Virus genome (UHGV): UHGV-0338605
Source of the DNA: a virus
Length of the DNA: 29,450 bases
Direction: 5' to 3' (one strand)
Below the pieces are notes generated by a model. The model saw only the letters and a list, made by a program, of their open reading frames with translations, did not search any database and was not told the DNA's origin. Position numbers and translations under genes: made by a program. Below, piece by piece: positions 753-26,973 of this stretch (within the stretch, counting starts at the first letter, position 1; each line of letters starts with the position of its first letter).

Positions 753-811
753 GATATCGACAATAAATTGCAATGGCCGCCGACTATGGCGGCTTTGTTT
801 TGCGTGTTACT

Positions 812-828
812 ATTACCAAAATGGTAAT
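812..828. promoter_or_regulatory. 17-bp palindrome ATTACC-AAAAT-GGTAAT, candidate operator, copy 1 of 6
   Basis: Read directly; 20 bp upstream of the terminase small subunit ATG at 848. Confidence 0.6.
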
Positions 829-847
829 TATTACTTTGGTGGTAACA

Positions 848-1477: not shown

Positions 1478-2955
1478 CAGCTGCAGCCATGTCGCCGGAA
1501 GATCAGCTCGTCGAGGATATCGCATCGTTCACGTATGACCCGCTGGGCTATTCGCTGTATGCGTTTCCGTGGGGCGAAGAGGGAACAGAGCTGGCGCATG
1601 CCACCGGTCCGCGAAAATGGCAGGCTGATGCATTCCGCGAGATACGGGATCACCTTCAGAATCCTGCTACCCGTCACCAGCCACTGATGCTGGCCCGCGC
1701 ATCCGGTCACGGTATCGGAAAATCCGCTTTCATTTCGATGCTGATCAACTGGGGCATGTCCACCTGCGAGGACTGCAAGGTGGTGGTGACCGCCAACACA
1801 GACAACCAGCTGCGCACCAAAACATGGCCTGAAATCATCAAATGGTCGAACCTGGCTATCACGAAAGAATGGTTCACCTGCACCGCCACGGCGATGTACA
1901 GCAACGATCCCGGTCACGACAAACGCTGGCGCGCTGACGCAATCCCATGGTCTGAGCACAACACAGAGGCGTTCGCCGGTCTGCACAACGAGCGTAAGCG
2001 CATCATCGTCGTATTCGACGAGGCGTCCAACATCGCCGATCTGGTGTGGGAGGTGGCCGAGGGTGCGCTGACGGACGAAGACACCGAAATCATCTGGGTG
2101 GCGTTCGGTAACCCGACGCGTAACACCGGGCGTTTCCGTGAATGCTTCCGAAAATACAAACACCGCTGGAAGTGCGCGCAGATAGACAGCCGTACTGTCG
2201 AAGGAACAAACAAGCAGCAGTTGCAGAAATGGGTGGACGACTACGGCGAGGATAGCGACTTTGTGAAGGTCCGTGTGCGCGGGATCTTCCCTGATGCGTC
2301 TGAAAACCAGTTTATTCCATCCGGCCTGACGCAACCAGCTGTTGGCAGGGTTATCACTCCGGCACAGGTCCAGCACGCTGCTGTAGTTCTTGGCGTCGAC
2401 CCGTCTCACCAGGGTAAAGACCCCGCAGTTATCTACCTGAGGCAGGGGCTGCACTGCAAAAAACTCGGGGAGTGGCAGCGTACCACTGACGATGTGCTGT
2501 TTGCGAAAGTGATCGCCGACTTTGAGGATCAGTACCAGGCTGATGCTGTGTTTATCGATTACGGCTATGGCACAGGTCTTAAATCTGTTGGCGATAACTG
2601 GGGGCGTAACTGGACGCTGATAATGTTCGGCAGCGGTACGGCAGATCCTGAAATGGGCAATAAGCGCGGCGAGATGTACAAATCAGCCCGTGATGCGCTG
2701 AAGCTTGGTGCGCAACTTGATAGCCAGGATTTAGCCGACGAGCTGAGCGCTCCTGAATACAAGGTCAGGCTCAAGGACAGCCGGAAGATTTTGCAGGACA
2801 AGGAAGAGGTGAAAGAATTGCTTGGCCGGTCACCTAACAACGCCGACGCCTATGTGCTGACTTATGCTGCTCCGGTTACTAAAAAACAGTTCAATTATGG
2901 GCAGCAGCAAAGCCAGCAGGGTAAGGCTCTCACAGAGTACGATCCCTATGCATGA
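1474..2955 (+). CDS. terminase large subunit
   Basis: 493-aa ORF with a Walker-A-like ASGHGIGKS and an acidic VVFDEASNI motif followed by a nuclease-like C-terminal half; ATG overlaps the upstream stop (ATGA). Confidence 0.9.
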   Translation: MTAAAMSPEDQLVEDIASFTYDPLGYSLYAFPWGEEGTELAHATGPRKWQADAFREIRDHLQNPATRHQPLMLARASGHGIGKSAFISMLINWGMSTCEDCKVVVTANTDNQLRTKTWPEIIKWSNLAITKEWFTCTATAMYSNDPGHDKRWRADAIPWSEHNTEAFAGLHNERKRIIVVFDEASNIADLVWEVAEGALTDEDTEIIWVAFGNPTRNTGRFRECFRKYKHRWKCAQIDSRTVEGTNKQQLQKWVDDYGEDSDFVKVRVRGIFPDASENQFIPSGLTQPAVGRVITPAQVQHAAVVLGVDPSHQGKDPAVIYLRQGLHCKKLGEWQRTTDDVLFAKVIADFEDQYQADAVFIDYGYGTGLKSVGDNWGRNWTLIMFGSGTADPEMGNKRGEMYKSARDALKLGAQLDSQDLADELSAPEYKVRLKDSRKILQDKEEVKELLGRSPNNADAYVLTYAAPVTKKQFNYGQQQSQQGKALTEYDPYA

Positions 2956-2978
2956 AAAAGCCCGCGCATCGGCGGGCT
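2955..2978 (-). terminator. rho-independent terminator for the minus-strand tRNA/Gp49 unit
   Basis: Stem GCCCGC(2960-2965)/GCGGGC(2972-2977) with a 6-nt loop; on the minus strand it is followed by TTTTT (plus AAAAA 2955-2959). Lies just 3' of the minus-strand CDS ending at 2999. Confidence 0.6.
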
Positions 2979-2982
2979 GATT

Positions 2983-2994
2983 GTGACATGTCAC
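2983..2994. repeat. 12-bp perfect palindrome GTGACATGTCAC, copy 2 (14-bp TGTGACATGTCACA at 2982-2995)
   Basis: Read directly, between the converging 3' ends of the terminase large gene and the minus-strand gene. Confidence 0.8.
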
Positions 2995-2998
2995 ATCA

Positions 2999-3406
2999 TT
3001 ATTTTTCGCTCATTATCTGCTTCAGAAGATAACCTTCCAGCATCCAGATTTTATTTACCGCATTTTCGCGGGAAATCTTTCGCCCGATCTCTGGGTCGAA
3101 GTTCTCAGGGCTGGCGCATGCACTCTCGCCGGTGACAGTGAATCCATTTCGCAGCACTAGAACGCAAAACGTAAGTACTGCAGCCTGCTCAGGAATGTTC
3201 AACTCCTCAACCTTTTCATCATCTGACTTTGTATCAGTCAAATATTGATGGCGACCTGCTATACCATCAGCAGCCGTGAAGTAATGCTCACTTACTATAA
3301 CGTCGGCAATCCGTTGTGGCGTAATGCGCGGCGCGTTTAAGCCTTTAGCCTGAATTTCCTGCTCGATTGCCATGCAGGATGGTGCTGGAGATGCGGTTGA
3401 TACCAT
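2999..3406 (-). CDS. small phage protein, possibly Gp49/Gp66-like family (about 135 aa)
   Basis: ORF on the minus strand; ATG at 3406 preceded by AGGTGA (the track's GTG at 3415 is less likely). The C-terminal ASPENFDPEIGRKISRENAVNKIW resembles, from memory, Phage_gp49_66-type proteins; unverified. Confidence 0.55.
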   Translation of the reverse strand: MVSTASPAPSCMAIEQEIQAKGLNAPRITPQRIADVIVSEHYFTAADGIAGRHQYLTDTKSDDEKVEELNIPEQAAVLTFCVLVLRNGFTVTGESACASPENFDPEIGRKISRENAVNKIWMLEGYLLKQIMSEK

Positions 3407-3613
3407 GATTTTCACCTTAAAAAAATGCCCACCGAAGTGGGAGAACTGGAAGCAAGGGTGCCTTCCATGGCTTTACGGGTTTACAGCGCAACGTCATCGC
3501 AATGGCGTTCTGCTGTAAAAGTGACGGTGGTCAGCATCAAGGGAAACTGCCACCGCCAATAGCTACACAGCATCGTTCTTATGGGCGCTTCATCACGGTC
3601 CTAAGGCGTGATC

Positions 3614-3690
3614 TGGTGCGGCATGCAGGATTCGAACCTGCGACCAACCGCTTAGAAGGCGGTTGCTCTATCCAACTGAGCTAATGCCAC
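3614..3690 (-). tRNA. tRNA-Arg (anticodon UCU), argU-like
   Basis: Minus-strand 77-nt sequence GTGGCATTAGCTCAGTTGGATAGAGCAACCGCCTTCTAAGCGGTTGGTCGCAGGTTCGAATCCTGCATGCCGCACCA folds as a cloverleaf: 7-bp acceptor stem with one G-U pair, GTTCGAATC T-loop, anticodon loop CTTCTAA, encoded CCA. Confidence 0.88.
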
Positions 3691-4143
3691 AACGCTGAGA
3701 GCACTCCCATCTTTGCTAATGGGCTTCAAGAGCGGCAGGCCTACCACTTGGAATGCTCTCATCGTTGCATCCTCGTCTCTTCCGAGGTGTCACACCGTAT
3801 CGCCACGATGGTGAGTCGTCATGTCCGTGCTTACCTGACACTGGCTTGCACATTCCGGCTACCCGGTTGGGGAAGTAGCATCAAGGGAACCCATCCGGAC
3901 CGCTGCGGCACATGTGCCATATGCCGTACTGCTACACATCTGAAAGCGCACTCCACCGTTTGGATTTAACGACCAGGCTCAAAGGTCATTCACTGAAGCG
4001 CGCTTTTAGTTGTGTGCGGAGATGATGCTCCGCTTATCCACCGCCTTTACTTTTAAGCCCAATTTATTGCTGCGGTACTCCGGGCTACTGCACAAGCGGT
4101 TACATAACCACCTCCGCAATTCGTCAATTCAACACGCGAACTA

Positions 4144-4160
4144 ATTACCTAAAAGGTAAT
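4144..4160. promoter_or_regulatory. 17-bp palindrome ATTACC-TAAAA-GGTAAT, candidate operator, copy 2 of 6
   Basis: Read directly; about 90 bp upstream of the ATG at 4250 in an AT-rich promoter-like stretch. Confidence 0.6.
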
Positions 4161-4249
4161 ATCTGATGTTATAAGTGTCAATAGCCTACGCTAAATAAAT
4201 CATATGTGGTTAAATTGGTAATAATTTAATTGCGTACGGAGCTATTGCT

Positions 4250-4470: not shown

Positions 4471-6141
4471 ATGGCGGAAACCGAAAAAGAGCGTCTGCTG
4501 AAGCAGCTCGCACAGCTGAAGAATGAGCGCACATCGTTCGAGTCGCACTGGCGTGACCTGAGCGACTTCATCAATCCGCGCGGCTCTCGCTTTCTGACGT
4601 CTGATGTAAACCGTGATGATCGTCGAAACACCAAGATTGTTGATCCTACTGGCTCAATGGCTCAGCGCATTTTGTCCAGCGGCATGATGTCAGGCATCAC
4701 CAGCCCGGCACGTCCATGGTTCAAACTGGCAACGCCAGACCCTGACATGATGGATTATGGTCCGGTTAAAGTCTGGCTGGAAGTCGTGCAGCGCCGCATG
4801 AACGAAGTGTTCAACAAGTCAAACCTGTATCAGTCATTGCCTGTCATGTACGCCAGCCTTGGCACTTTCGGCACCGCCGCAATGGCTGTGCTCGAAGATG
4901 ACCAGGACGTGATCCGCACAATGCCTTTCCCGATTGGCAGCTACTACCTGGCTAACAGCCCGCGCGGCAGCGTCGACACATCCTTCCGCCAGTTCTCCAT
5001 GACTGTTCGTCAGCTTGTGCAGGAATTCGGTCTGGATAACGTCAGCTCATCGGTGCAGGGGATGTGGCAAAACGGCACGTATGAAACGTGGATCGAGGTT
5101 AACCACTGCATTACTCCAAACGTTAACCGTGATACCGGGAAGATGGACAGCAAGAACAAGCCGTTCCGCTCTGTGTACTTCGAGAGTGGCGGCGATTCCG
5201 ACAAGCTGCTGCGTGAGTCCGGCTTCGATGAATTCCCGATCCTGGCGCCGCGCTGGGAAGTTAACGGCGAAGACGTTTACGCATCTTCCTGCCCTGGCAT
5301 GCTGGCACTCGGTCAGGTGAAAGCCCTTCAGGTTGAGCAGAAGCGTAAAGCTCAGCTGATCGATAAGGCTACTAACCCGCCGATGGTCGCACCTACCTCG
5401 CTAAAAACACAGCGTGTTTCCCTGCTGCCTGGTGATGTGACGTACCTCGACGTGTTGAACGGTCAGGACGGTTTCAAACCTGCATACCTGGTAAACCCGA
5501 ATACTGCAGATCTGCTGGCTGATATTCAGGATACCCGCCAGACCATCAACAGCGCCTACTTCGTCGACCTCTTCATGATGCTGCAAAACATCAACACCCG
5601 CTCTATGCCGGTGGAAGCAGTGATCGAGATGAAGGAAGAGAAACTTCTGATGCTTGGCCCGGTGCTGGAGCGCCTGAACGACGAAGCACTTAATCCGCTT
5701 ATTGACCGCGTTTTCTCCATCATGGCGCGCAAGAACATGCTTCCTCCACCGCCGGACGTTATGCAGGGTATGCCGCTGCGTATCGAATACATCTCCGTTA
5801 TGGCGCAGGCTCAGAAATCTATCGGACTCACCAGCCTTTCGCAGACCGTTGGCTTCATTGGCCAACTCGCACAGCTCAAACCTGAAGCGCTCGACAAGCT
5901 CGACGTTGATCAGGCTATCGACGCGTTCTCCGAAATGTCCGGCGTATCGCCAACCGTCATCATTCCGCAGGAGCAGGTTCAGGGCATTCGTGAAGAGCGC
6001 GCCAAACAGGCACAAGCCGCACAGGCAATGGCAATGGGGCAGGCCGTAGCGCAGGGAGCCAAGACTCTCAGCGAGACGCAAACCACTGACCCGAGCGCAT
6101 TAACCGCTATCGCTAATGCAGCAGGAGCACCGCAGCAATGA
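4471..6141 (+). CDS. portal (head-to-tail connector) protein
   Basis: 556-aa ORF with RBS, first large gene of the head module after terminase; size and position typical of podovirus portals; Ala/Gln-rich C-terminal tail. Confidence 0.75.
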   Translation: MAETEKERLLKQLAQLKNERTSFESHWRDLSDFINPRGSRFLTSDVNRDDRRNTKIVDPTGSMAQRILSSGMMSGITSPARPWFKLATPDPDMMDYGPVKVWLEVVQRRMNEVFNKSNLYQSLPVMYASLGTFGTAAMAVLEDDQDVIRTMPFPIGSYYLANSPRGSVDTSFRQFSMTVRQLVQEFGLDNVSSSVQGMWQNGTYETWIEVNHCITPNVNRDTGKMDSKNKPFRSVYFESGGDSDKLLRESGFDEFPILAPRWEVNGEDVYASSCPGMLALGQVKALQVEQKRKAQLIDKATNPPMVAPTSLKTQRVSLLPGDVTYLDVLNGQDGFKPAYLVNPNTADLLADIQDTRQTINSAYFVDLFMMLQNINTRSMPVEAVIEMKEEKLLMLGPVLERLNDEALNPLIDRVFSIMARKNMLPPPPDVMQGMPLRIEYISVMAQAQKSIGLTSLSQTVGFIGQLAQLKPEALDKLDVDQAIDAFSEMSGVSPTVIIPQEQVQGIREERAKQAQAAQAMAMGQAVAQGAKTLSETQTTDPSALTAIANAAGAPQQ

Positions 6142-19954: not shown

Positions 19955-20806
19955 ATGAAAAAAATAAATTTGTTTTTTGGCATAGTGCTTTCAATAGTCT
20001 CTGTAAATCCTACAGCTGCCAGTTCATTGCAATGCAATAAGGATAACTTTGATGCATGCAAAACGTGTGAACAATTATCAAAGGCTATCGACTTAAAAGA
20101 ACCTAATCGTGGCGATTACTATAGAGGGGCTTTATGGAATGGGCTTTACGCCTCTTATGTAATTAATTGCCCTGTGGTTGCTGAGAAGTTACTGAGCCAT
20201 GGTGCTATACCATCATATGGCGGATATATGGGGTCTATGGGGGCGGTTCTGACAGGAAAATGGCCTCATAACAATGAATCAATAAATCTTTCATGGGCAG
20301 ATTTGCTTATAAAACATGGATTTGATGTTAATAGGCATACGGGGAATTATAAATCAGCTACTGAAGTATGGGCTATAGATAAAAAACAGATTGAATATAA
20401 GTCAGTTTTTGACAAGTTAATTCAATCCAGCGAAGTAAAACCACTCGATCCTTCAAGAAATTTAGAATGGTGTGCGTCTGAAGGGTATCGCTCAGTTGTC
20501 GTTTATTCCCTTAACTCATGTATAGAAAATGCTATAAAACGTTTGGATGATGGTGTTTCTTCAGCGTCTGATATTTCATCAGCAGCCGTAAATTCCTGTA
20601 CTAGCGATGTAGAAAATTTCAATAAGCATTTGGCATGCAAAGCAGCTGTTAAAGAAAACTCTGATAAAGAGAGAAGCGACGTTTACCAGTTATTAACCAG
20701 TGATAGTCAAATGAATAAAAATGTTATTGATATGCTGAAGGAAAGAAATATTGAAACGGTTCTTGAATTTAGAGCTGAAAATCGATCAGCGAAAACTGCA
20801 CAGTGA
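19955..20806 (+). CDS. secreted or periplasmic protein of unknown function (283 aa), AT-rich accessory gene
   Basis: N-terminal signal peptide MKKINLFFGIVLSIVSVNPTAAS; strongly AT-rich compared with the flanking structural genes; ATG one nucleotide after the gp16-like stop; weak ankyrin-like LLxxGA/DVN patterns (LLSHGA, LLIKHGFDVN). Confidence 0.6.
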   Translation: MKKINLFFGIVLSIVSVNPTAASSLQCNKDNFDACKTCEQLSKAIDLKEPNRGDYYRGALWNGLYASYVINCPVVAEKLLSHGAIPSYGGYMGSMGAVLTGKWPHNNESINLSWADLLIKHGFDVNRHTGNYKSATEVWAIDKKQIEYKSVFDKLIQSSEVKPLDPSRNLEWCASEGYRSVVVYSLNSCIENAIKRLDDGVSSASDISSAAVNSCTSDVENFNKHLACKAAVKENSDKERSDVYQLLTSDSQMNKNVIDMLKERNIETVLEFRAENRSAKTAQ

Positions 20807-21790: not shown

Positions 21791-21927
21791 TGAACTATCC
21801 GAATGTTAAACGCCTTCGTACTCGTCAAATTTTCTCATGTGGGCTCCTCCTGTATCGGTGCCTAATCGCTATGGATCACCCGTAAGGTAATAGTACGCTA
21901 TTCACCCACAGTCTGCAATCTGTACAG

Positions 21928-21962: not shown

Positions 21963-22658
21963 TCAGAAGAATCCTGCTTTGTCGTTGATGTACTCCGCGT
22001 GAGTCTGGATATCACGCAGGCATTTGCTCACACCAACGATGTAGCAGAACATGGTGGTCAGTTCCGCCGCCGCGCCCGATACGTCATGCCCGTCTTCCTG
22101 TAACTGGTTCAGCAGATTCATCAGCAGTGAGTTCTCCGTCAGGCCGAGAACACCAGACGGCGAATGAATCAGGCTACGGTAGCCGGGCTTCAGTGGGGCG
22201 CTGTAGGTTTTGTTCTCTATCTTCATTGCCTGCATCACTGCTGATGCTGTGGCGTTTGCAACCTGGTCGGCAACCATCTTTATGCGTTCTTCCTGCGGGA
22301 GCGAGTTTTTAATGTAACTTCCGGTGCGGCGGATCTGAGGAAGAACCTCACCTGTAACCCATTTACGAAAGCGGTAGGGGATAGTGCCTGGTGTCACTGC
22401 GTCGCGGCAGCGGAGGATCAGTGTGTAGAGGCCTGACTCGGAGATGATGATCGATTCTTGCTCACCGCCAGGGGTGTCGGTTGAAGCGACGCCCTTCTCA
22501 TCATCATCAAGTTTTCGAACAGCATCTCGATGGTTTGCTATGCCTATAGCCCGACAAACATCTGAAGCGATAAACCATGGCTCACCATTAATGACGATTA
22601 CTCGTATATCGGCTTGGGATTCGAAAGAAAAAATGGACGTGCTTTTTGTAGCTGTCAT
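21963..22658 (-). CDS. Bro-N domain protein (antirepressor-like) with distinct C-terminal domain (231 aa)
   Basis: N-terminal FESQADIRVIVINGEPWFIASDVCRAIGIANHRDAVRKL matches the Bro-N/antirepressor N-terminal pattern; ATG at 22658 with AAGG upstream; C-terminal about 70 aa is paralogous to the small ORF at 23806-24066. Confidence 0.75.
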   Translation of the reverse strand: MTATKSTSIFSFESQADIRVIVINGEPWFIASDVCRAIGIANHRDAVRKLDDDEKGVASTDTPGGEQESIIISESGLYTLILRCRDAVTPGTIPYRFRKWVTGEVLPQIRRTGSYIKNSLPQEERIKMVADQVANATASAVMQAMKIENKTYSAPLKPGYRSLIHSPSGVLGLTENSLLMNLLNQLQEDGHDVSGAAAELTTMFCYIVGVSKCLRDIQTHAEYINDKAGFF

Positions 22659-22926
22659 AGTGGTTACCTTTTAGTCTGGTCAATCACCACTACCGACGCC
22701 AATCGGTTGGTGGTGAACTGTGCAGGGTTGGCGTAACCGGCTAAAAGGACCCGGCGCACCTTTCGGTGCCCCCACACAGCCCACCATAATACGAATGTGG
22801 CCGTGCTATACGCATAAAAAAACCGCTTGCGCGGTGAATGCGCCTTTTAGTAATCCGGGACGCCAATCCCGGCACTGGATTTTGCCAGTGCCCGATTACT
22901 ATGGCACAAGAGGAGTGCGATGTAAA

Positions 22927-22943
22927 TTTACCGAAAAGGTAAT
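22927..22943. promoter_or_regulatory. 17-bp palindrome TTTACC-GAAAA-GGTAAT, candidate operator, copy 4 of 6
   Basis: Read directly, in the divergent intergenic region 22659-23055. Confidence 0.6.
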
Positions 22944-23019: not shown

Positions 23020-23036
23020 ATTACCTTTAAGGTAAT
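23020..23036. promoter_or_regulatory. 17-bp palindrome ATTACC-TTTAA-GGTAAT, candidate operator, copy 5 of 6
   Basis: Read directly; 20 bp upstream of the ATG at 23056. Confidence 0.6.
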
Positions 23037-23055: not shown

Positions 23056-23784
23056 ATGGAAGTTTTCTGGATAGTTGTTGGTGTTGTTACGGTGATTATT
23101 TACGTTATCAACCAGAACAGGACTAAGGTCTCTGATCGCACAGTCGTTAATCATCGCAAAACGATAAAGACCGAAGATGGAGAAATAACGATTAATCGTA
23201 CACAGGTGATAGACCACACCTCCACTCAGTTTCAAAAAACTGGAGGTAATGCGCCGGATATTTCAGTACATCCTGCTTATGATATATCGGTAATCCAGAC
23301 ATATTATAAACAACAGGAGTCAGCAAAAGAGAGGGCGCTGATTCAGCCAAAGCCATTTACAGCAGAGCTTCCACCTGGAGTGTCAACGCGTCCGGCATAT
23401 CATGACAGATTCCCAGGTGATGACATATCGTCTCAGTTACCTAAAAAAGCTCCTCAGGTAGTATCTGAGCCAGCAAGAATACCTTCTGTATCGCCATCAC
23501 AAGAAGAATCAGCTAACAGAGTTTCAAGTGGTAGTAAGCAGTGTTTGCGATGCAGAATAAACCTTCCATATGAAAAATTCAGGAAATCGTCAAAAAATCC
23601 AGATGGATTGACTAAGTGGTGTGCAAGGTGTCTCGATGGCCCAAAGAATACACGCCATATGAAGTGGTGCCCAATTTGTAATGTCCGCAGAAAACGCACC
23701 AGCTTTTACTCTAATAATCAAAATGCGGACGGCTTAATGGCATGGTGCAAAACGTGCTGGGACGAGCACAAAGCGAAACGATAG
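23056..23784 (+). CDS. membrane-anchored protein with tandem Cys4 zinc-ribbon-like repeats (242 aa)
   Basis: GAGGAA RBS; N-terminal hydrophobic helix FWIVVGVVTVIIYVI; C-terminus carries two repeats of C-x2-C-x(17-20)-DGL-x3-WC-x2-C; AT-rich; followed by a strong terminator. Confidence 0.65.
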   Translation: MEVFWIVVGVVTVIIYVINQNRTKVSDRTVVNHRKTIKTEDGEITINRTQVIDHTSTQFQKTGGNAPDISVHPAYDISVIQTYYKQQESAKERALIQPKPFTAELPPGVSTRPAYHDRFPGDDISSQLPKKAPQVVSEPARIPSVSPSQEESANRVSSGSKQCLRCRINLPYEKFRKSSKNPDGLTKWCARCLDGPKNTRHMKWCPICNVRRKRTSFYSNNQNADGLMAWCKTCWDEHKAKR

Positions 23785-23808: not shown

Positions 23809-24066
23809 TGTGGTTTGTTTTCGTAATTGTTCGGCACAATAGTCGAGATGTGTTTGCAGATCCTTCATGGATAGCTGTGAGCTGGTGACATAGTTCACCA
23901 GTGCAGTAAGTTCGGCCAGCGGCCCGTCGACGTTGAACCCGTCTTTATCAAGTTCCCGCAATAAAGTCATAAGGTGCGAGTTCTCCACCAGGGATATAAC
24001 GCCTCCCGGCGTGTGTACTCTTTCATAAAATCCATCTTCCAGTGGGTGGTGATACCGCTGTTGCAT
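23806..24066 (-). CDS. small protein (86 aa) paralogous to the C-terminal domain of the Bro-N protein
   Basis: ATG at 24066 preceded by GGAG (the track ORF begins at a TTG at 24084). About 40-45% identity by eye to residues about 160-225 of the 231-aa Bro-N protein (shared ENS-LM-LL, DG-V-G, AELT, QTH-Y). Confidence 0.6.
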   Translation of the reverse strand: MQQRYHHPLEDGFYERVHTPGGVISLVENSHLMTLLRELDKDGFNVDGPLAELTALVNYVTSSQLSMKDLQTHLDYCAEQLRKQTT

Positions 24067-24141
24067 TAACCATTCTCCATACAAACACTGTATATATATA
24101 CATATATCAGATGAACCACTGTTTCACCAGTATGATTTTTA

Positions 24142-24158
24142 ATTACCTGTGAGGTAAT
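24142..24158. promoter_or_regulatory. 17-bp palindrome ATTACC-TGTGA-GGTAAT, candidate operator, copy 6 of 6
   Basis: Read directly; between the divergent starts of the 86-aa gene (24066, minus) and the tail spike gene (24262, plus). Confidence 0.6.
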
Positions 24159-24261
24159 AACTTTGTTGATTACATCTCGTGCGATTCATATATGGTTCGT
24201 TGGGTAATAGAATAACCAGTAGTGCGGTGCGCCGGGTGCTGCGACTTTCTGGAGTTTAAAC

Positions 24262-26973
24262 ATGACGGTCTCAACCGAAGTTGACCACAATGACTACACG
24301 GGTAACGGGGTCACGACATCATTCCCCTATACCTTCCGAATTTTTCATAAGTCTGATCTGGTGGTGCAGGTTGTTGACCTGAGCGAAAACATCACTGAAT
24401 TAACACTGGACACTGACTACACGGTGACAGGTGCTGGCGGATATACTGGCGGGAATGTTGTTTTATCGTCGCCTCTTGCCAATGGTTATCAGATTTCGAT
24501 ATCCAGAGAGTTACCGGTTACCCAGGAGACTGATCTCAGAAATCAGGGTAAGTTTTTCGCAGAAGTGCATGAGGATGCTTTTGATAAGTTGACCATGCTG
24601 ATACAGCAGGCAATTAGCTGGCTGCGCCTTTCTTTACGTAAGCCGTCTTTTATTGCAAATTATTATGATGCCCTGGGTAACTACATACGAAATCTTCGTG
24701 ACCCGTCACGACCACAGGATGCAGCTACAAAAAATTACGTTGACGGGGTTGCTGAAGGTAACATTTCTTATGCAGATTCTCTATTTAAAAGAACCTTAAG
24801 AGTTCCTGAGGATTATGTTGACCAGATACCATCAAATGCTGATAGATCAAATAAAATACTTGCTTTTGATTCTGGAGGTAAACCGATTGCTGTTTTACCT
24901 GAATCTGGTTCTGCTTCAGATGTTTTAATTGAGCTGGCAAATAACGGTGATAAAAAAATTGGTAGCTCATATGGTGGCACAGTTTATAGCGACTACCAAC
25001 AATCAATTTTTGTCAAAAAAGGAGATTTTTATTCCGGTTTAAGCATATCGGGAAAAGATGATGCCTACCTTTTTTCTGATGGGCTATGGTATGTATGGAC
25101 TGGCGCATTACCGCACACGATCTTGTCGGGTGAAACTCCTGATGTAGAAACAACTAAATGGGCTTGTGTAGGCCTGCTTAATGGGCATGAAATTTGTTCT
25201 GCTCTTAACTATAGCGATTCATGGGGCATCCATGATGATTCACCATTACTTCGCAAAGCCATCATTAGTTTAATAAGAACTGGATATGCAAGATTTTGCA
25301 TTAACGCTGGCGTTACTATTAACCTTTTTACTGATTGCGAAATTCCGTTCTATCTGGATGGGAGGGCTGTGTCTTTCCGTTTTCATGGAGAAACAGCAAT
25401 TGGTTCTTTAGGAAGAGTGTCAGAACTAGTAGTAGCTCTAGGTATTAGAGGTCTTGTATTCGAGGCTATTCAAGTAGAGATTGACCATTTCACTATGCGT
25501 CAGTGGGTTGGTAATGCTGGGCAGTCTATTGTCAGTTATACATCTGATACAGTTACGCTATCTTTTGACCCATGGCCTGACGGACGCACCCCAGTGATAT
25601 GGCCTTGGGGAACTACTGCTGGTGATGGCACTGTTTACACAAGCTTTTTAGAATTTACAACTGACAGTGGTGGTTATTACGCATCTGGCGTAACTCGCAA
25701 CTTAGATGGAACCGTAACACTAACCAATGTCCATCCTATTGGGCCAACTAATACAATCGCTTCCGCAACGATTGTTAACTTTTTCCAGAGTCATGCTAAT
25801 AACTATCCAGAAGGAAGTTTCGCAGATACGGCAGCAGTAATCACCCTGGGGGTATCAGAAAACCCATTTATTCATAACTTATGGGTGCTTGCTGTCTATC
25901 GAGGCTTTGCTCACGGTCTTGGCTCTGGAGCAGGTCCGGGAGTATTGATGGGAAATATCGGCGTATGGTCTGATATTGTCGTAGACAACGCTTTATACTT
26001 TATAGCTAATACTGATGTGAATCCATCATCTGGGCAAGGCATCAACAATGGGATGTTCAATAACATTCAGTTATCAAACGTCCGTCGTGGAATAAGAGCA
26101 CGTAGAGCCTACAATCTTGCATTCACAAACCTTCAGCATATTGCTAGCGGTAATGTTTCATTTGATGCTGTTACTATACTGGCAAATGAAATAGAAGGTG
26201 TTACTTTAAATGGATCTCAGTTTGGTTGGACATCTATCGACTGGGTTATAGATACATGGGTTCCTAAACTACTCAAGTGTACCCGATTACGTCGCTCCTC
26301 TATTACTGGATGCGTGTTCGGTCGACATGATGTAACCATCACAAGAGGTGCCGTAATTGACGTTAAGGACGGCACAATACTAGGTTTAACACTAACTGGT
26401 AATTCTATGGTTACAATCGACGAAAACTCAGATTCAAGTAACTATGGATGGATTGAGTGTAATGAGCTTAAATCATCAGTTATTTCTGATAACTCCCCTA
26501 GTTCAGGTAGTGAGCTTGGTGGAAGCATTAATCTCTCGCTGAGAACTGCTTCTAATGACTTAACAAAATTTGATAACACATATTTTGGTCAACCAGTCAG
26601 AACAAACGCAGAAGCTGGTGTGTTTGATAATGAACTAGCATCCGGTGGAAATGTTTTTGACAGCACAACTGAATACAGAGACGCAGGTAAAATTTTAATC
26701 TTTGTTGATGTAAACAATGCTGCTGTATGGCCTGATAATTCAAGGAATATCATACCATTCGGCGGAGGATTAACAGGAGGTAAAACACTTGGATTGCCTA
26801 CCCCAGCAGTACTCCTGTCATTGAAAAGAAGAAGTGTTCTGGTTGATTTGTCATCTGTGGTTTTTGGTAGCCAGACAATTGGAGTGTATAACGGGGCAAC
26901 TTTGGTATCAACAATATCAACTCCTGGTGTTTATGAGTTTCTCCTCGTAGGGGCAAAATACATAAAATTATAA
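24262..26973 (+). CDS. tail spike / tail fibre receptor-binding protein (903 aa)
   Basis: GGAG RBS; N-terminal MTVSTEVDHNDYTGNGVTTSFPYTFRIF...DLVV is the conserved virion-attachment type of N-terminus seen on many tail fibres and spikes; the remainder is AT-rich and Ser/Thr/Gly/Asn-rich. Confidence 0.75.
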   Translation: MTVSTEVDHNDYTGNGVTTSFPYTFRIFHKSDLVVQVVDLSENITELTLDTDYTVTGAGGYTGGNVVLSSPLANGYQISISRELPVTQETDLRNQGKFFAEVHEDAFDKLTMLIQQAISWLRLSLRKPSFIANYYDALGNYIRNLRDPSRPQDAATKNYVDGVAEGNISYADSLFKRTLRVPEDYVDQIPSNADRSNKILAFDSGGKPIAVLPESGSASDVLIELANNGDKKIGSSYGGTVYSDYQQSIFVKKGDFYSGLSISGKDDAYLFSDGLWYVWTGALPHTILSGETPDVETTKWACVGLLNGHEICSALNYSDSWGIHDDSPLLRKAIISLIRTGYARFCINAGVTINLFTDCEIPFYLDGRAVSFRFHGETAIGSLGRVSELVVALGIRGLVFEAIQVEIDHFTMRQWVGNAGQSIVSYTSDTVTLSFDPWPDGRTPVIWPWGTTAGDGTVYTSFLEFTTDSGGYYASGVTRNLDGTVTLTNVHPIGPTNTIASATIVNFFQSHANNYPEGSFADTAAVITLGVSENPFIHNLWVLAVYRGFAHGLGSGAGPGVLMGNIGVWSDIVVDNALYFIANTDVNPSSGQGINNGMFNNIQLSNVRRGIRARRAYNLAFTNLQHIASGNVSFDAVTILANEIEGVTLNGSQFGWTSIDWVIDTWVPKLLKCTRLRRSSITGCVFGRHDVTITRGAVIDVKDGTILGLTLTGNSMVTIDENSDSSNYGWIECNELKSSVISDNSPSSGSELGGSINLSLRTASNDLTKFDNTYFGQPVRTNAEAGVFDNELASGGNVFDSTTEYRDAGKILIFVDVNNAAVWPDNSRNIIPFGGGLTGGKTLGLPTPAVLLSLKRRSVLVDLSSVVFGSQTIGVYNGATLVSTISTPGVYEFLLVGAKYIKL

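Follow-up and report, generated by a model that had tools for sequence, protein, structure and literature searches.

The window analysed here, a 29,450-nt stretch of the virus genome UHGV-0338605, carries a tRNA-Arg(UCU) and a gene for a 135-amino-acid (aa) protein on the minus strand between its terminase and portal genes; the tRNA sits in an internal slot of a minus-strand non-coding unit of ~700 nt, counted from its putative start to its terminator, and this unit contains a conserved, pseudoknotted RNA core. We see about even chances that the tRNA is cargo of structured RNAs that form a modular, as yet undescribed family in temperate phages of enterobacteria, built from the pseudoknotted core, a hypervariable domain, a cargo slot for tRNA-Arg, a tRNA-like element or another insert, and an optional 3' domain; as part of the same joint reading, its members would be made from repressor-controlled, early promoters (as PL leader in lambdoid phages, within the ban operon of P1-like phages, as an antisense unit in epsilon15-like phages), would have an early-infection role in counter-defence, host takeover or transcript control, and would be a Gram-negative counterpart of the GOLLD and ROOL RNAs. 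The tRNA and the 135-aa gene, which belongs to the Acb4 family, add little when taken alone; their value lies in this context.

Structure of the RNA core

The structure of the core was derived by eye from an alignment (A3) of 56 representatives with less than 90% pairwise identity; besides four hairpins or helices, it has a closing helix (GCC/GGC) and a pseudoknot that joins a loop to a downstream segment. In the window, its elements are placed as follows:

3771-3926, minus strand: conserved pseudoknotted RNA core, 156 nt, supported by covariation
3906-3926, minus strand: helix P1
~3862-3899, minus strand: helix P2, closing a variable apex
3843-3862, minus strand: invariant segment GUAGCCGGAAUGUGCAAGCC
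3802-3819, minus strand: P3 hairpin
~3792-3795, minus strand: GGUG, which forms the pseudoknot with the P3 loop CACC
3771-3787, minus strand: P4 hairpin

Across the alignment, 95.6% of the cells were paired, compared to 29-50% in slid controls, and changes on both sides of the helix were found at 16 of 30 pairs (138 cells); none of 500 shuffles reached the observed covariation values. The pseudoknot helix was paired throughout (100%) and contained three covarying pairs. Since the frequent G-U pairs, among them one P1 pair that is U-G in 55 of the 56 sequences, fit only the minus strand, the RNA is assigned to that strand, which is also the strand of the tRNA.

The core had no match among the Rfam 15 covariance models at E<=10 in the window, and none in 13 relatives; at gathering and at permissive thresholds, the window and these relatives yielded nothing beyond the tRNA, isrK, C4, int-alpA and chance matches, and a full-text literature search with the invariant motifs as sequence strings returned nothing relevant. 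With no Rfam model, no genome annotation and an empty, if limited, literature search, the modular RNA is apparently undescribed, and a prior description is possible. Several other interpretations of the conserved segment were considered and rejected. Coding by a plus-strand 73-aa ORF (open reading frame) with a TTG start (3748-3969) is incompatible with motif spacings that differ by non-multiples of three and with substitutions that are compensatory instead of codon-periodic, and the same evidence disposes of a 29-codon minus-strand ORF, read by eye, from the invariant AUG in helix P1. A sigma-54 promoter reading of TGGCAC-N5 fails on the unconserved -12 GC and on the covariation of this segment as a hairpin; the known prophage small RNAs AgvB, AsxR, the Pas small RNAs and STnc100 lie in other positions and are much smaller. 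A sub-threshold Trp_leader match at 2952-3040 is merely the terminator described below.

Distribution and genomic context of the core

In a distant-similarity search, the segment ~3752-3933 of the window matched unrelated phages at 71-82% identity. Phages with the core include lambdoid phages (mEp390, mEp460, cdtI, Stx2a and Stx2c), P1-like phages (P7, D6, SJ46, RCS47), Klebsiella phage SopranoGao, and others; their records are almost always free of annotated features under the match, with a few overlapping "hypothetical protein" calls. The exact motif TGGCACATG-N40-70-GGAATGTGCAAG was found in at least 120 IMG/VR contigs, and a scan with the exact motif recovered 25 species-representative genomes, nearly all of them Enterobacteriaceae. 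By blastn, 2029 of 5426 complete E. coli genomes (~37%) have the core, at 2662 places, 280 of which are on plasmids; among the places listed, almost all matches had no annotated feature beneath them, and none had an RNA feature. One IMG/VR contig (L030) carries two core copies ~800 nt apart on the same strand (4072-4145 and 4879-4950, minus).

The surroundings of the core are recurrent across these phages. In mEp390, 733R5 and Stx2a_1447, the cI gene is followed by its terminator and a PL-like promoter with operator repeats, and the core begins ~45-50 nt further on; in contexts other than the epsilon15-like one, helix-turn-helix repressors with a Peptidase_S24 domain account for 36 of the 61 distinct upstream ORFs on the same strand. 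In P7, the core lies inside the C1-controlled ban operon, and helix P1 starts 15 nt past a tRNA(CAU). Approximately 200 nt downstream of the core, and separate from it, Stx2a_1447 has a boxA-like CGCTCTTTTTA and a long hairpin, read by eye as nutL-like; since this boxA and hairpin lie further downstream, the core itself is not the nut site. Pseudoknotted and backed by covariation, this RNA abounds in E. coli and related genera and consistently occupies the first part of repressor-controlled early transcripts. Should it turn out to function during the early lytic phase, lambdoid, P1-like and epsilon15-like phages would share a widespread element that has escaped study, and it could be tested directly in experimental systems that are well established.

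The tRNA and the cargo slot

The window region is most similar to epsilon15-like phages of the genus Uetakevirus (95-98% identity to the Salmonella phages PAT1, SPN1S, SPN9TCW, SPC32H and epsilon15); E. coli prophages, for example those of E2348/69 and H10407, also match, as do phiV10-type E. coli phages at ~80%. Downstream of the core, the minus-strand unit continues with the following features:

3697-3760, minus strand: helix P5 (3751-3760 with 3697-3706) around a hypervariable domain
3614-3690, minus strand: tRNA-Arg(UCU), argU-like, CCA encoded, identified by ARAGORN and Rfam; occupies the P6 slot
3442-3613, minus strand: structured 3' domain with hairpins at 3592-3612, 3523-3557, 3480-3520 and 3448-3466

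The preliminary description of this DNA, made from its letters alone, had reported a complete tRNA-Arg(UCU) at 3614-3690, and this identification is confirmed: ARAGORN found it as the sole tRNA in the window (anticodon tct, minus strand), and the Rfam tRNA model RF00005 matched over its full length with 71 bits against a gathering score of 29 (E=8e-14), as expected of an intact tRNA and not of a pseudogene. Every complete E. coli genome has a tRNA-Arg that is 87% identical to the phage tRNA over positions 7-77. One such host copy, located downstream of folD and ybcJ, agrees with the phage tRNA in D arm, anticodon loop and T arm, with the D loop AGUUGGAUA and the 7-nt anticodon loop CUUCUAA identical to those of host argU; acceptor stem, anticodon stem, variable loop and discriminator base (A in the phage, G in the host) differ. 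Identity elements for arginyl-tRNA synthetase are A20, C35 and A/G73; the phage tRNA has all of these, together with UCU in a 7-nt loop, and "argU-like" is a fair label for it.

This tRNA occurs at the same position in genomes deposited as complete phages (SPN9TCW, SPC32H, phiV10-type), and the integrase and attP of epsilon15 are located elsewhere; for these reasons the tRNA is phage cargo and not an attachment site, as the preliminary description had supposed, and its role as an integration target is ruled out. Neither the tRNA nor the 135-aa gene is unusual for this phage group, and in related phages each has been annotated or can be classified: tRNA-Arg is annotated in the GenBank records of SPN9TCW, SPC32H, phiv142-3 and O157 typing phages 9 and 10, and the phiV10 record describes the ORF as similar to Sf6 gene 66.

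The cargo slot is bounded by GUUGUGG...CCACAA, with the 5' motif present in 107 of 137 distinct instances; the tRNA-bearing versions share the GUGG of GUUGUGG (3687-3693 in the window) with the first four bases of the acceptor stem. A tRNA-Arg fills the slot in 24 of the 137 instances and other structured inserts of ~80-150 nt in most others, and wherever a same-strand tRNA was found downstream of the core (28 cases), it was tRNA-Arg(UCU). The slot of the tRNA and that of the ORF further downstream vary independently among relatives:

SPN9TCW: tRNA slot, the same tRNA; ORF slot, 168 aa, no Pfam family
E2348/69: tRNA slot, 113-nt non-canonical tRNA-like element with CCA (L003 2238-2350, minus strand); ORF slot, 143 aa, no Pfam family
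PAT1: tRNA slot, unrelated 442-bp insert; ORF slot, 143 aa, no Pfam family
epsilon15: tRNA slot, nothing; ORF slot, PF13876
phiV10: ORF slot, PF13876
Tyrion: ORF slot, a DUF551 ORF and an ORF of no assigned family

The element of E2348/69 combines a perfect acceptor stem, D and T arms and an encoded CCA with a long extra arm and an "anticodon" loop of 11 nt that includes UUGCCAU; its fold has z=-2.9, and PGAP called it a pseudogenic tRNA-Gly.

The P5 helix is formed by AGAGCAUUG with CAGUGCUCU; its pairing of GAGAGCAUUC with GAGUGCUCUC is replaced by the compensatory variant AGCGCAUUA with UAGUGCGCU in two loci (L102, L134), and the enclosed hypervariable domain ranges from 40 to ~170 nt in relatives. 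One P5 domain (L065, 384-430, plus strand) gave a sub-threshold match to the type I hammerhead ribozyme (28.7 bits against 34, E=0.005) with the core motifs CUGAAGAG...GAAAC, and is possibly a self-cleaving insert in the RNA family. The 3' domain of the epsilon15-like phages was recovered in 52 loci at 70-98% identity; its consensus fold contains covarying pairs, and it ends in a terminator. A 13-nt direct repeat, UUCCCUUGAUGCU on the minus strand, has its two copies (3533-3545 and 3877-3889) in the apical loops of two different RNA hairpins; in epsilon15, precisely the 331 bp that separate the two repeats are missing, and with them the tRNA and most of the core; one copy remains (2672-2684 in epsilon15), and in sequence the gap looks like a deletion.

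Terminators, putative promoter and operators

The transcriptional signals assigned to the unit are:

4153-4181, minus strand: putative sigma-70 promoter read from the sequence, TTGACA (4181-4176), 17-nt spacer, TACCTT (4158-4153)
4144-4160, no strand: repressor operator palindrome ATTACCTAAAAGGTAAT, overlapping the -10 of the putative promoter
3927-4152, minus strand: optional 5' leader between promoter and core, present in 16 loci and missing in SPN9TCW and SPN1S
3419-3441, minus strand: intrinsic terminator or attenuator, CCCAC-UUCG-GUGGG followed by U7 (hairpin 3428-3441), directly before the ribosome-binding site (RBS) of the ORF
2955-2978, minus strand: intrinsic terminator ending the ORF (hairpin 2959-2978 and T-run), its U-tract overlapping the stop codon of the large terminase

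The terminator at 2955-2978 had already been recognized in the preliminary description, which joined tRNA and gene into one cassette; the two do share a strand, but the terminator at 3419-3441, which had been missed, stands between them. Since this terminator divides the tRNA from the gene, and the RBS abuts its U-tract, the ORF most likely needs terminator read-through. The stem covaries among relatives (CCCAC/GUGGG, CCCGG/CCGGG, CCCGC/GCGGG), and the homologous site in epsilon15 is annotated as a rho-independent terminator; a terminator scan returned two hits where 1.5 were expected from shuffles, and the argument is therefore carried by conservation.

In the putative promoter, the -35, the spacing and the -10 are kept in phiV10 despite a diverged spacer, and in all five aligned relatives; the core of SPN9TCW begins ~30 nt after it. 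The same geometry, TTGAYM-N15-ATTACC, recurs at the operator at 23020, where it faces the plus strand. The operator palindrome ATTACC-N5-GGTAAT has six copies in the window (812-828, 4144-4160, 21875-21891, 22927-22943, 23020-23036 and 24142-24158) against 0.04 expected by chance, and the equivalent epsilon15 sites are annotated as repressor-binding, with an IHF (integration host factor) site beside the homologue of 4144-4160. We infer a repressor-controlled minus-strand start near 4146. Operator copies precede terS, gp3, the Ant region, the gene at 23056 and the tailspike gene, an arrangement that suggests direct control of several structural and accessory promoters by one repressor.

The Acb4-family gene and its slot

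The feature that follows the first terminator is:

2999-3418, minus strand: RBS AAGGTG and 135-aa ORF of the Acb4 family (PF13876) in a swappable slot (ATG 3404-3406, stop 2999-3001)

The minus-strand ORF at 2999-3415 encodes 138 aa from a GTG and 135 aa from the ATG at 3404-3406; since this ATG comes 6 nt after AAGGTG, the 135-aa protein is the likely product. Its earlier designation as Gp49-like holds at the family level: the product matches PF13876 (Phage_gp49_66; E=3.5e-35, 120.8 bits, cut-off 27), the family of Gp49 and Sf6 gp66, as well as phrog_322. This family is now known under a different name and function, as the Acb4 family founded by the Acb4 protein of phage SPO1, a tetrameric sponge that sequesters the cyclic dinucleotides of CBASS, the cyclic-oligonucleotide-based antiphage signalling system (Chang et al., bioRxiv 10.1101/2024.12.30.630793). 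All eight Acb4 homologs tested bound 3'3'-cGAMP, those from phages of Gram-negative hosts additionally bound 3'3'-cAA, and ligand specificity differs among homologs (bioRxiv 10.1101/2024.12.30.630793). The window protein is directly similar to the solved SPO1 Acb4 chain (PDB 9e4w; E=0.003) and keeps its ENFxxEIGR segment as well as F48, F62 and I66; with 135 aa compared to 96 aa it is longer, has an N-terminal extension, and is a predicted sponge. By sequence, its membership in the Acb4/PF13876 family is secure. With this identity, an accessory or counter-defence role describes the cassette better than codon supply alone.

Pairwise comparison located the boundaries of the ORF slot: flanking sequence is conserved up to ~2995-3003 and again from ~3404-3412, and the ORF in between is replaced in relatives, as listed above. 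PADLOC returned no match for the ORFs in this slot. In phage Tyrion (L010), an int-alpA RNA lies between the two slot ORFs (767-831, minus strand; 44 bits against 35.8). With two swap slots on a conserved scaffold, one for RNA cargo and one for a small protein, this locus illustrates on a small scale the exchange of accessory and counter-defence functions by temperate phages.

Codon usage

Codon counts were based on simple longest-ORF gene calls for four phage genomes, and the host baseline is a small 50-kb sample of E. coli, the true host probably being Salmonella or a relative. Per 1000 codons, the counts were:

Window, tRNA present: AGA 7.3, AGG 5.4
SPN9TCW, tRNA present: AGA 5.7, AGG 4.3
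PAT1, tRNA absent: AGA 6.3, AGG 4.3
epsilon15, tRNA absent: AGA 4.1, AGG 4.2
E. coli 50-kb sample (host): AGA 1.9-2.8, AGG 1.4-2.0

AGA in the window is thus ~3-4 times as frequent as in the E. coli sample, and AGG is likewise above it; the comparison with the host that had been suggested at the outset does not contradict the idea of codon supply. As noted previously, AGA codons are conspicuous in AT-rich genes and the tail spike: they are absent from the head genes and enriched in tail and injection genes, in the tailspike gene (17 of 903 codons) and in low-GC genes. Three low-GC genes (0.37-0.43; 19955-20806, 23056-23784 and 24262-26973) hold most of the rare codons. The 135-aa ORF contains neither AGA nor AGG. 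An excess larger than that of AGA was found for ATA (~11 per 1000 codons; E. coli sample, 2.1), for which the window has no cognate tRNA; the P1-like phages that share the RNA core have a tRNA(CAU), annotated as tRNA-Ile, adjoining it. A tRNA(CAU) can read ATA if its C34 is modified to lysidine.

Among the four genomes compared there was no sign of co-adaptation between AGA usage and tRNA presence. The earlier proposal that the phage supplies a tRNA for its own acquired genes therefore stands in part: the AGA excess over the E. coli sample favors it, but relatives without the tRNA use AGA to a similar extent, and the ATA excess is larger. Supply of an AGA decoder by the phage tRNA is plausible.

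Proposed model and alternatives

We moderately favor a model in which the locus forms the 3' half of an accessory unit, transcribed leftward, in the terminase-portal interval of epsilon15-like temperate phages; the tRNA, the gene family, both terminators, the RNA structure with its distribution, and the variability of the slots are directly supported. The order on the minus strand would be promoter, 156-nt core, hypervariable domain, tRNA slot, 3' domain, terminator, RBS with the Acb4 ORF, and terminator. With its promoter -10 under a repressor operator, the unit would probably be silent in the lysogen and made upon induction or infection. Transcription would mostly end at the first terminator; the product would be a non-coding RNA, from which the tRNA would be freed by RNase P and 3' processing. 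A read-through fraction would express the Acb4-like protein, predicted by homology to sequester CBASS cyclic dinucleotides as a tetramer. The tRNA would most likely supplement the scarce host AGA decoder during translation of the AGA-rich tail, injection and tailspike genes; it would be dispensable and exchanged as a cassette, with tRNA and ORF placed in two separate recombination-prone slots of a conserved scaffold.

Several observations weigh against this model. The single-sequence fold of the core is no more stable than that of shuffled sequence (z=+0.9 and +0.7 on the two strands); the promoter -10 matches the consensus in only three of six positions, and the promoter was not reported by a consensus scan; the operator at 4144-4160 could serve a plus-strand gp3/portal promoter, as the annotators of epsilon15 apparently assumed. 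Epsilon15, an isolated phage with a complete genome deposited, exists without the tRNA and most of the core, and AGA rates are alike in the tRNA-less PAT1 (6.3) and epsilon15 (4.1) and in the tRNA-bearing SPN9TCW (5.7). Finally, the ligand-contact residues K36, E49, Y57 and T70 of SPO1 Acb4 are changed in the window protein.

The tRNA and the Gp49-like gene could alternatively form one antisense operon that supplies an AGA decoder for horizontally acquired AT-rich genes, an explanation consistent with the AGA and AGG excess over the E. coli sample, with the AGA-rich tailspike and low-GC genes, and with the tRNA(CAU) beside the core in P1-like relatives, ATA being the other codon in large excess here. 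We regard it as unlikely, since a terminator divides the tRNA from the gene, the gene itself uses neither AGA nor AGG, PAT1 and epsilon15 are not AGA-depleted relative to SPN9TCW although they lack the tRNA, the larger ATA excess has no matching tRNA in the window, and the unit, if under repressor control, would bring no advantage to lysogenic-conversion genes. A structural or processing role of the tRNA within a large non-coding RNA, providing cleavage points for RNase P and 3'-end processing or a linked cargo as in GOLLD linkers, with decoding secondary, would account for the non-tRNA structured inserts in the same slot of most relatives, for the 113-nt tRNA-like element of E2348/69, for the overlap of the acceptor 5' side with the conserved GUUGUGG, and for the 15-nt distance between tRNA and helix P1 in P7; GOLLD RNAs sometimes have tRNAs in their linker region (PMC12286853). 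Yet the phage tRNA keeps all features required for function, its anticodon loop being the same as in host argU, and the exclusive occurrence of tRNA-Arg(UCU) in all 28 downstream positions suggests either shared ancestry or selection for what the tRNA decodes; a chiefly structural role is accordingly improbable.

Phage tRNAs can rescue infection from tRNA-cleaving defenses, and this tRNA might stand in for the tRNA-Arg(UCU) of the host when an anticodon nuclease of the host or a comparable defense cleaves or depletes it; its location in an accessory unit beside a gene of an anti-CBASS family, and acceptor and anticodon stems unlike those of host argU, would suit such a function. To our knowledge, however, the escape tRNAs described so far differ from the host tRNA in the anticodon loop, whereas CUUCUAA is identical in phage and host; moreover, no defense specific for tRNA-Arg(UCU) was identified here, and PADLOC found nothing for the neighboring ORFs, which leaves this explanation with a slight chance. 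Least credible, and very improbable, is the view that the conserved non-coding DNA has its function in the plus-strand transcript, forming a leader or RNase III processing site of the late gp3/portal mRNA, and that tRNA and ORF were inserted independently. The epsilon15 record annotates RNase III, IHF and repressor sites on the plus strand of the homologous region, and operators precede other plus-strand structural genes as well; but on the plus strand the G-U pairs of many helices, including the nearly invariant U-G pair of helix P1 (55 of 56), would become A-C mismatches, and where unrelated phages carry the core, its direction is always that of cI, ban or the tRNA and never that of structural genes.

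Relation to known systems

The closest counterparts of the RNA proposed here are the GOLLD and ROOL RNAs, which it resembles in being a multi-domain phage or prophage RNA of several hundred nucleotides with a tRNA-linked variable region; in GOLLD, tRNAs are sometimes adjacent to or covalently linked within the variable region (PMC12286853). It is a resemblance only: the GOLLD and ROOL covariance models had no match in the window at gathering score or at E<=10, and none in nine relatives at E<=0.5, and the RNA differs in sequence and helices, in its Enterobacterales hosts and in its repressor-controlled early promoters. Like HK022 putL and putR and lambda nutL, the core is an RNA just downstream of a repressor-controlled early promoter, and here it lies upstream of a terminator that most likely has to be read through for the ORF to be expressed. 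Compared by description, it is much larger than the put RNAs, and in a core-only search the phage records listed usually have it at one place each, not once per early operon as expected of put; unlike lambda nutL, the core does not consist of boxA and boxB, and the nutL-like boxA and hairpin are separate from it in Stx2a_1447.

With respect to its tRNA, the unit is comparable to the rare-codon tRNAs of other phages (ileZ-argN-argO of Stx phages; the tRNA genes of P1 and P7), as an intact tRNA for AGA, which is among the rarest codons of the host, in a temperate enterobacterial phage whose late genes over-use it; here, in contrast, the tRNA lies antisense in the morphogenesis region, inside a structured non-coding RNA, is exchangeable with non-tRNA inserts, and accompanies an AGA usage that is the same in relatives with and without it. 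Phage morons, autonomous insertions that run from promoter to terminator within a single module, are a further parallel: the unit described here lies on the opposite strand between terminase and portal, has a putative promoter and terminators of its own, and varies in content among close relatives. In contrast to morons, its scaffold is retained throughout the genus and the core even in phages of unrelated types, and variation is confined to two slots.

Flanking genes and other features of the window

The position of the tRNA and the 135-aa gene on the minus strand between terminase and portal, given in the preliminary description, agrees with the plus-strand flanks, which are the terminase small subunit (PF03592) and large terminase on one side, and a small gp3-like ORF and the portal gene on the other. 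The annotated large terminase of PAT1 (23824-26274) has 816 aa, compared to ~493 aa in relatives, and is rich in AGA and AGG; it may represent an insertion or fusion. Further along the window, isrK (77.9 bits) and C4 antisense RNA (77.7 bits) occur in tandem (22706-22891, minus strand) directly upstream of a 231-aa Ant gene (21963-22658, minus strand; phrog_130, E=4e-63). This arrangement constitutes an RNA-controlled antirepressor module like that of P1 immI, and the pair of isrK and C4 is found in Stx2a_1447 as well.

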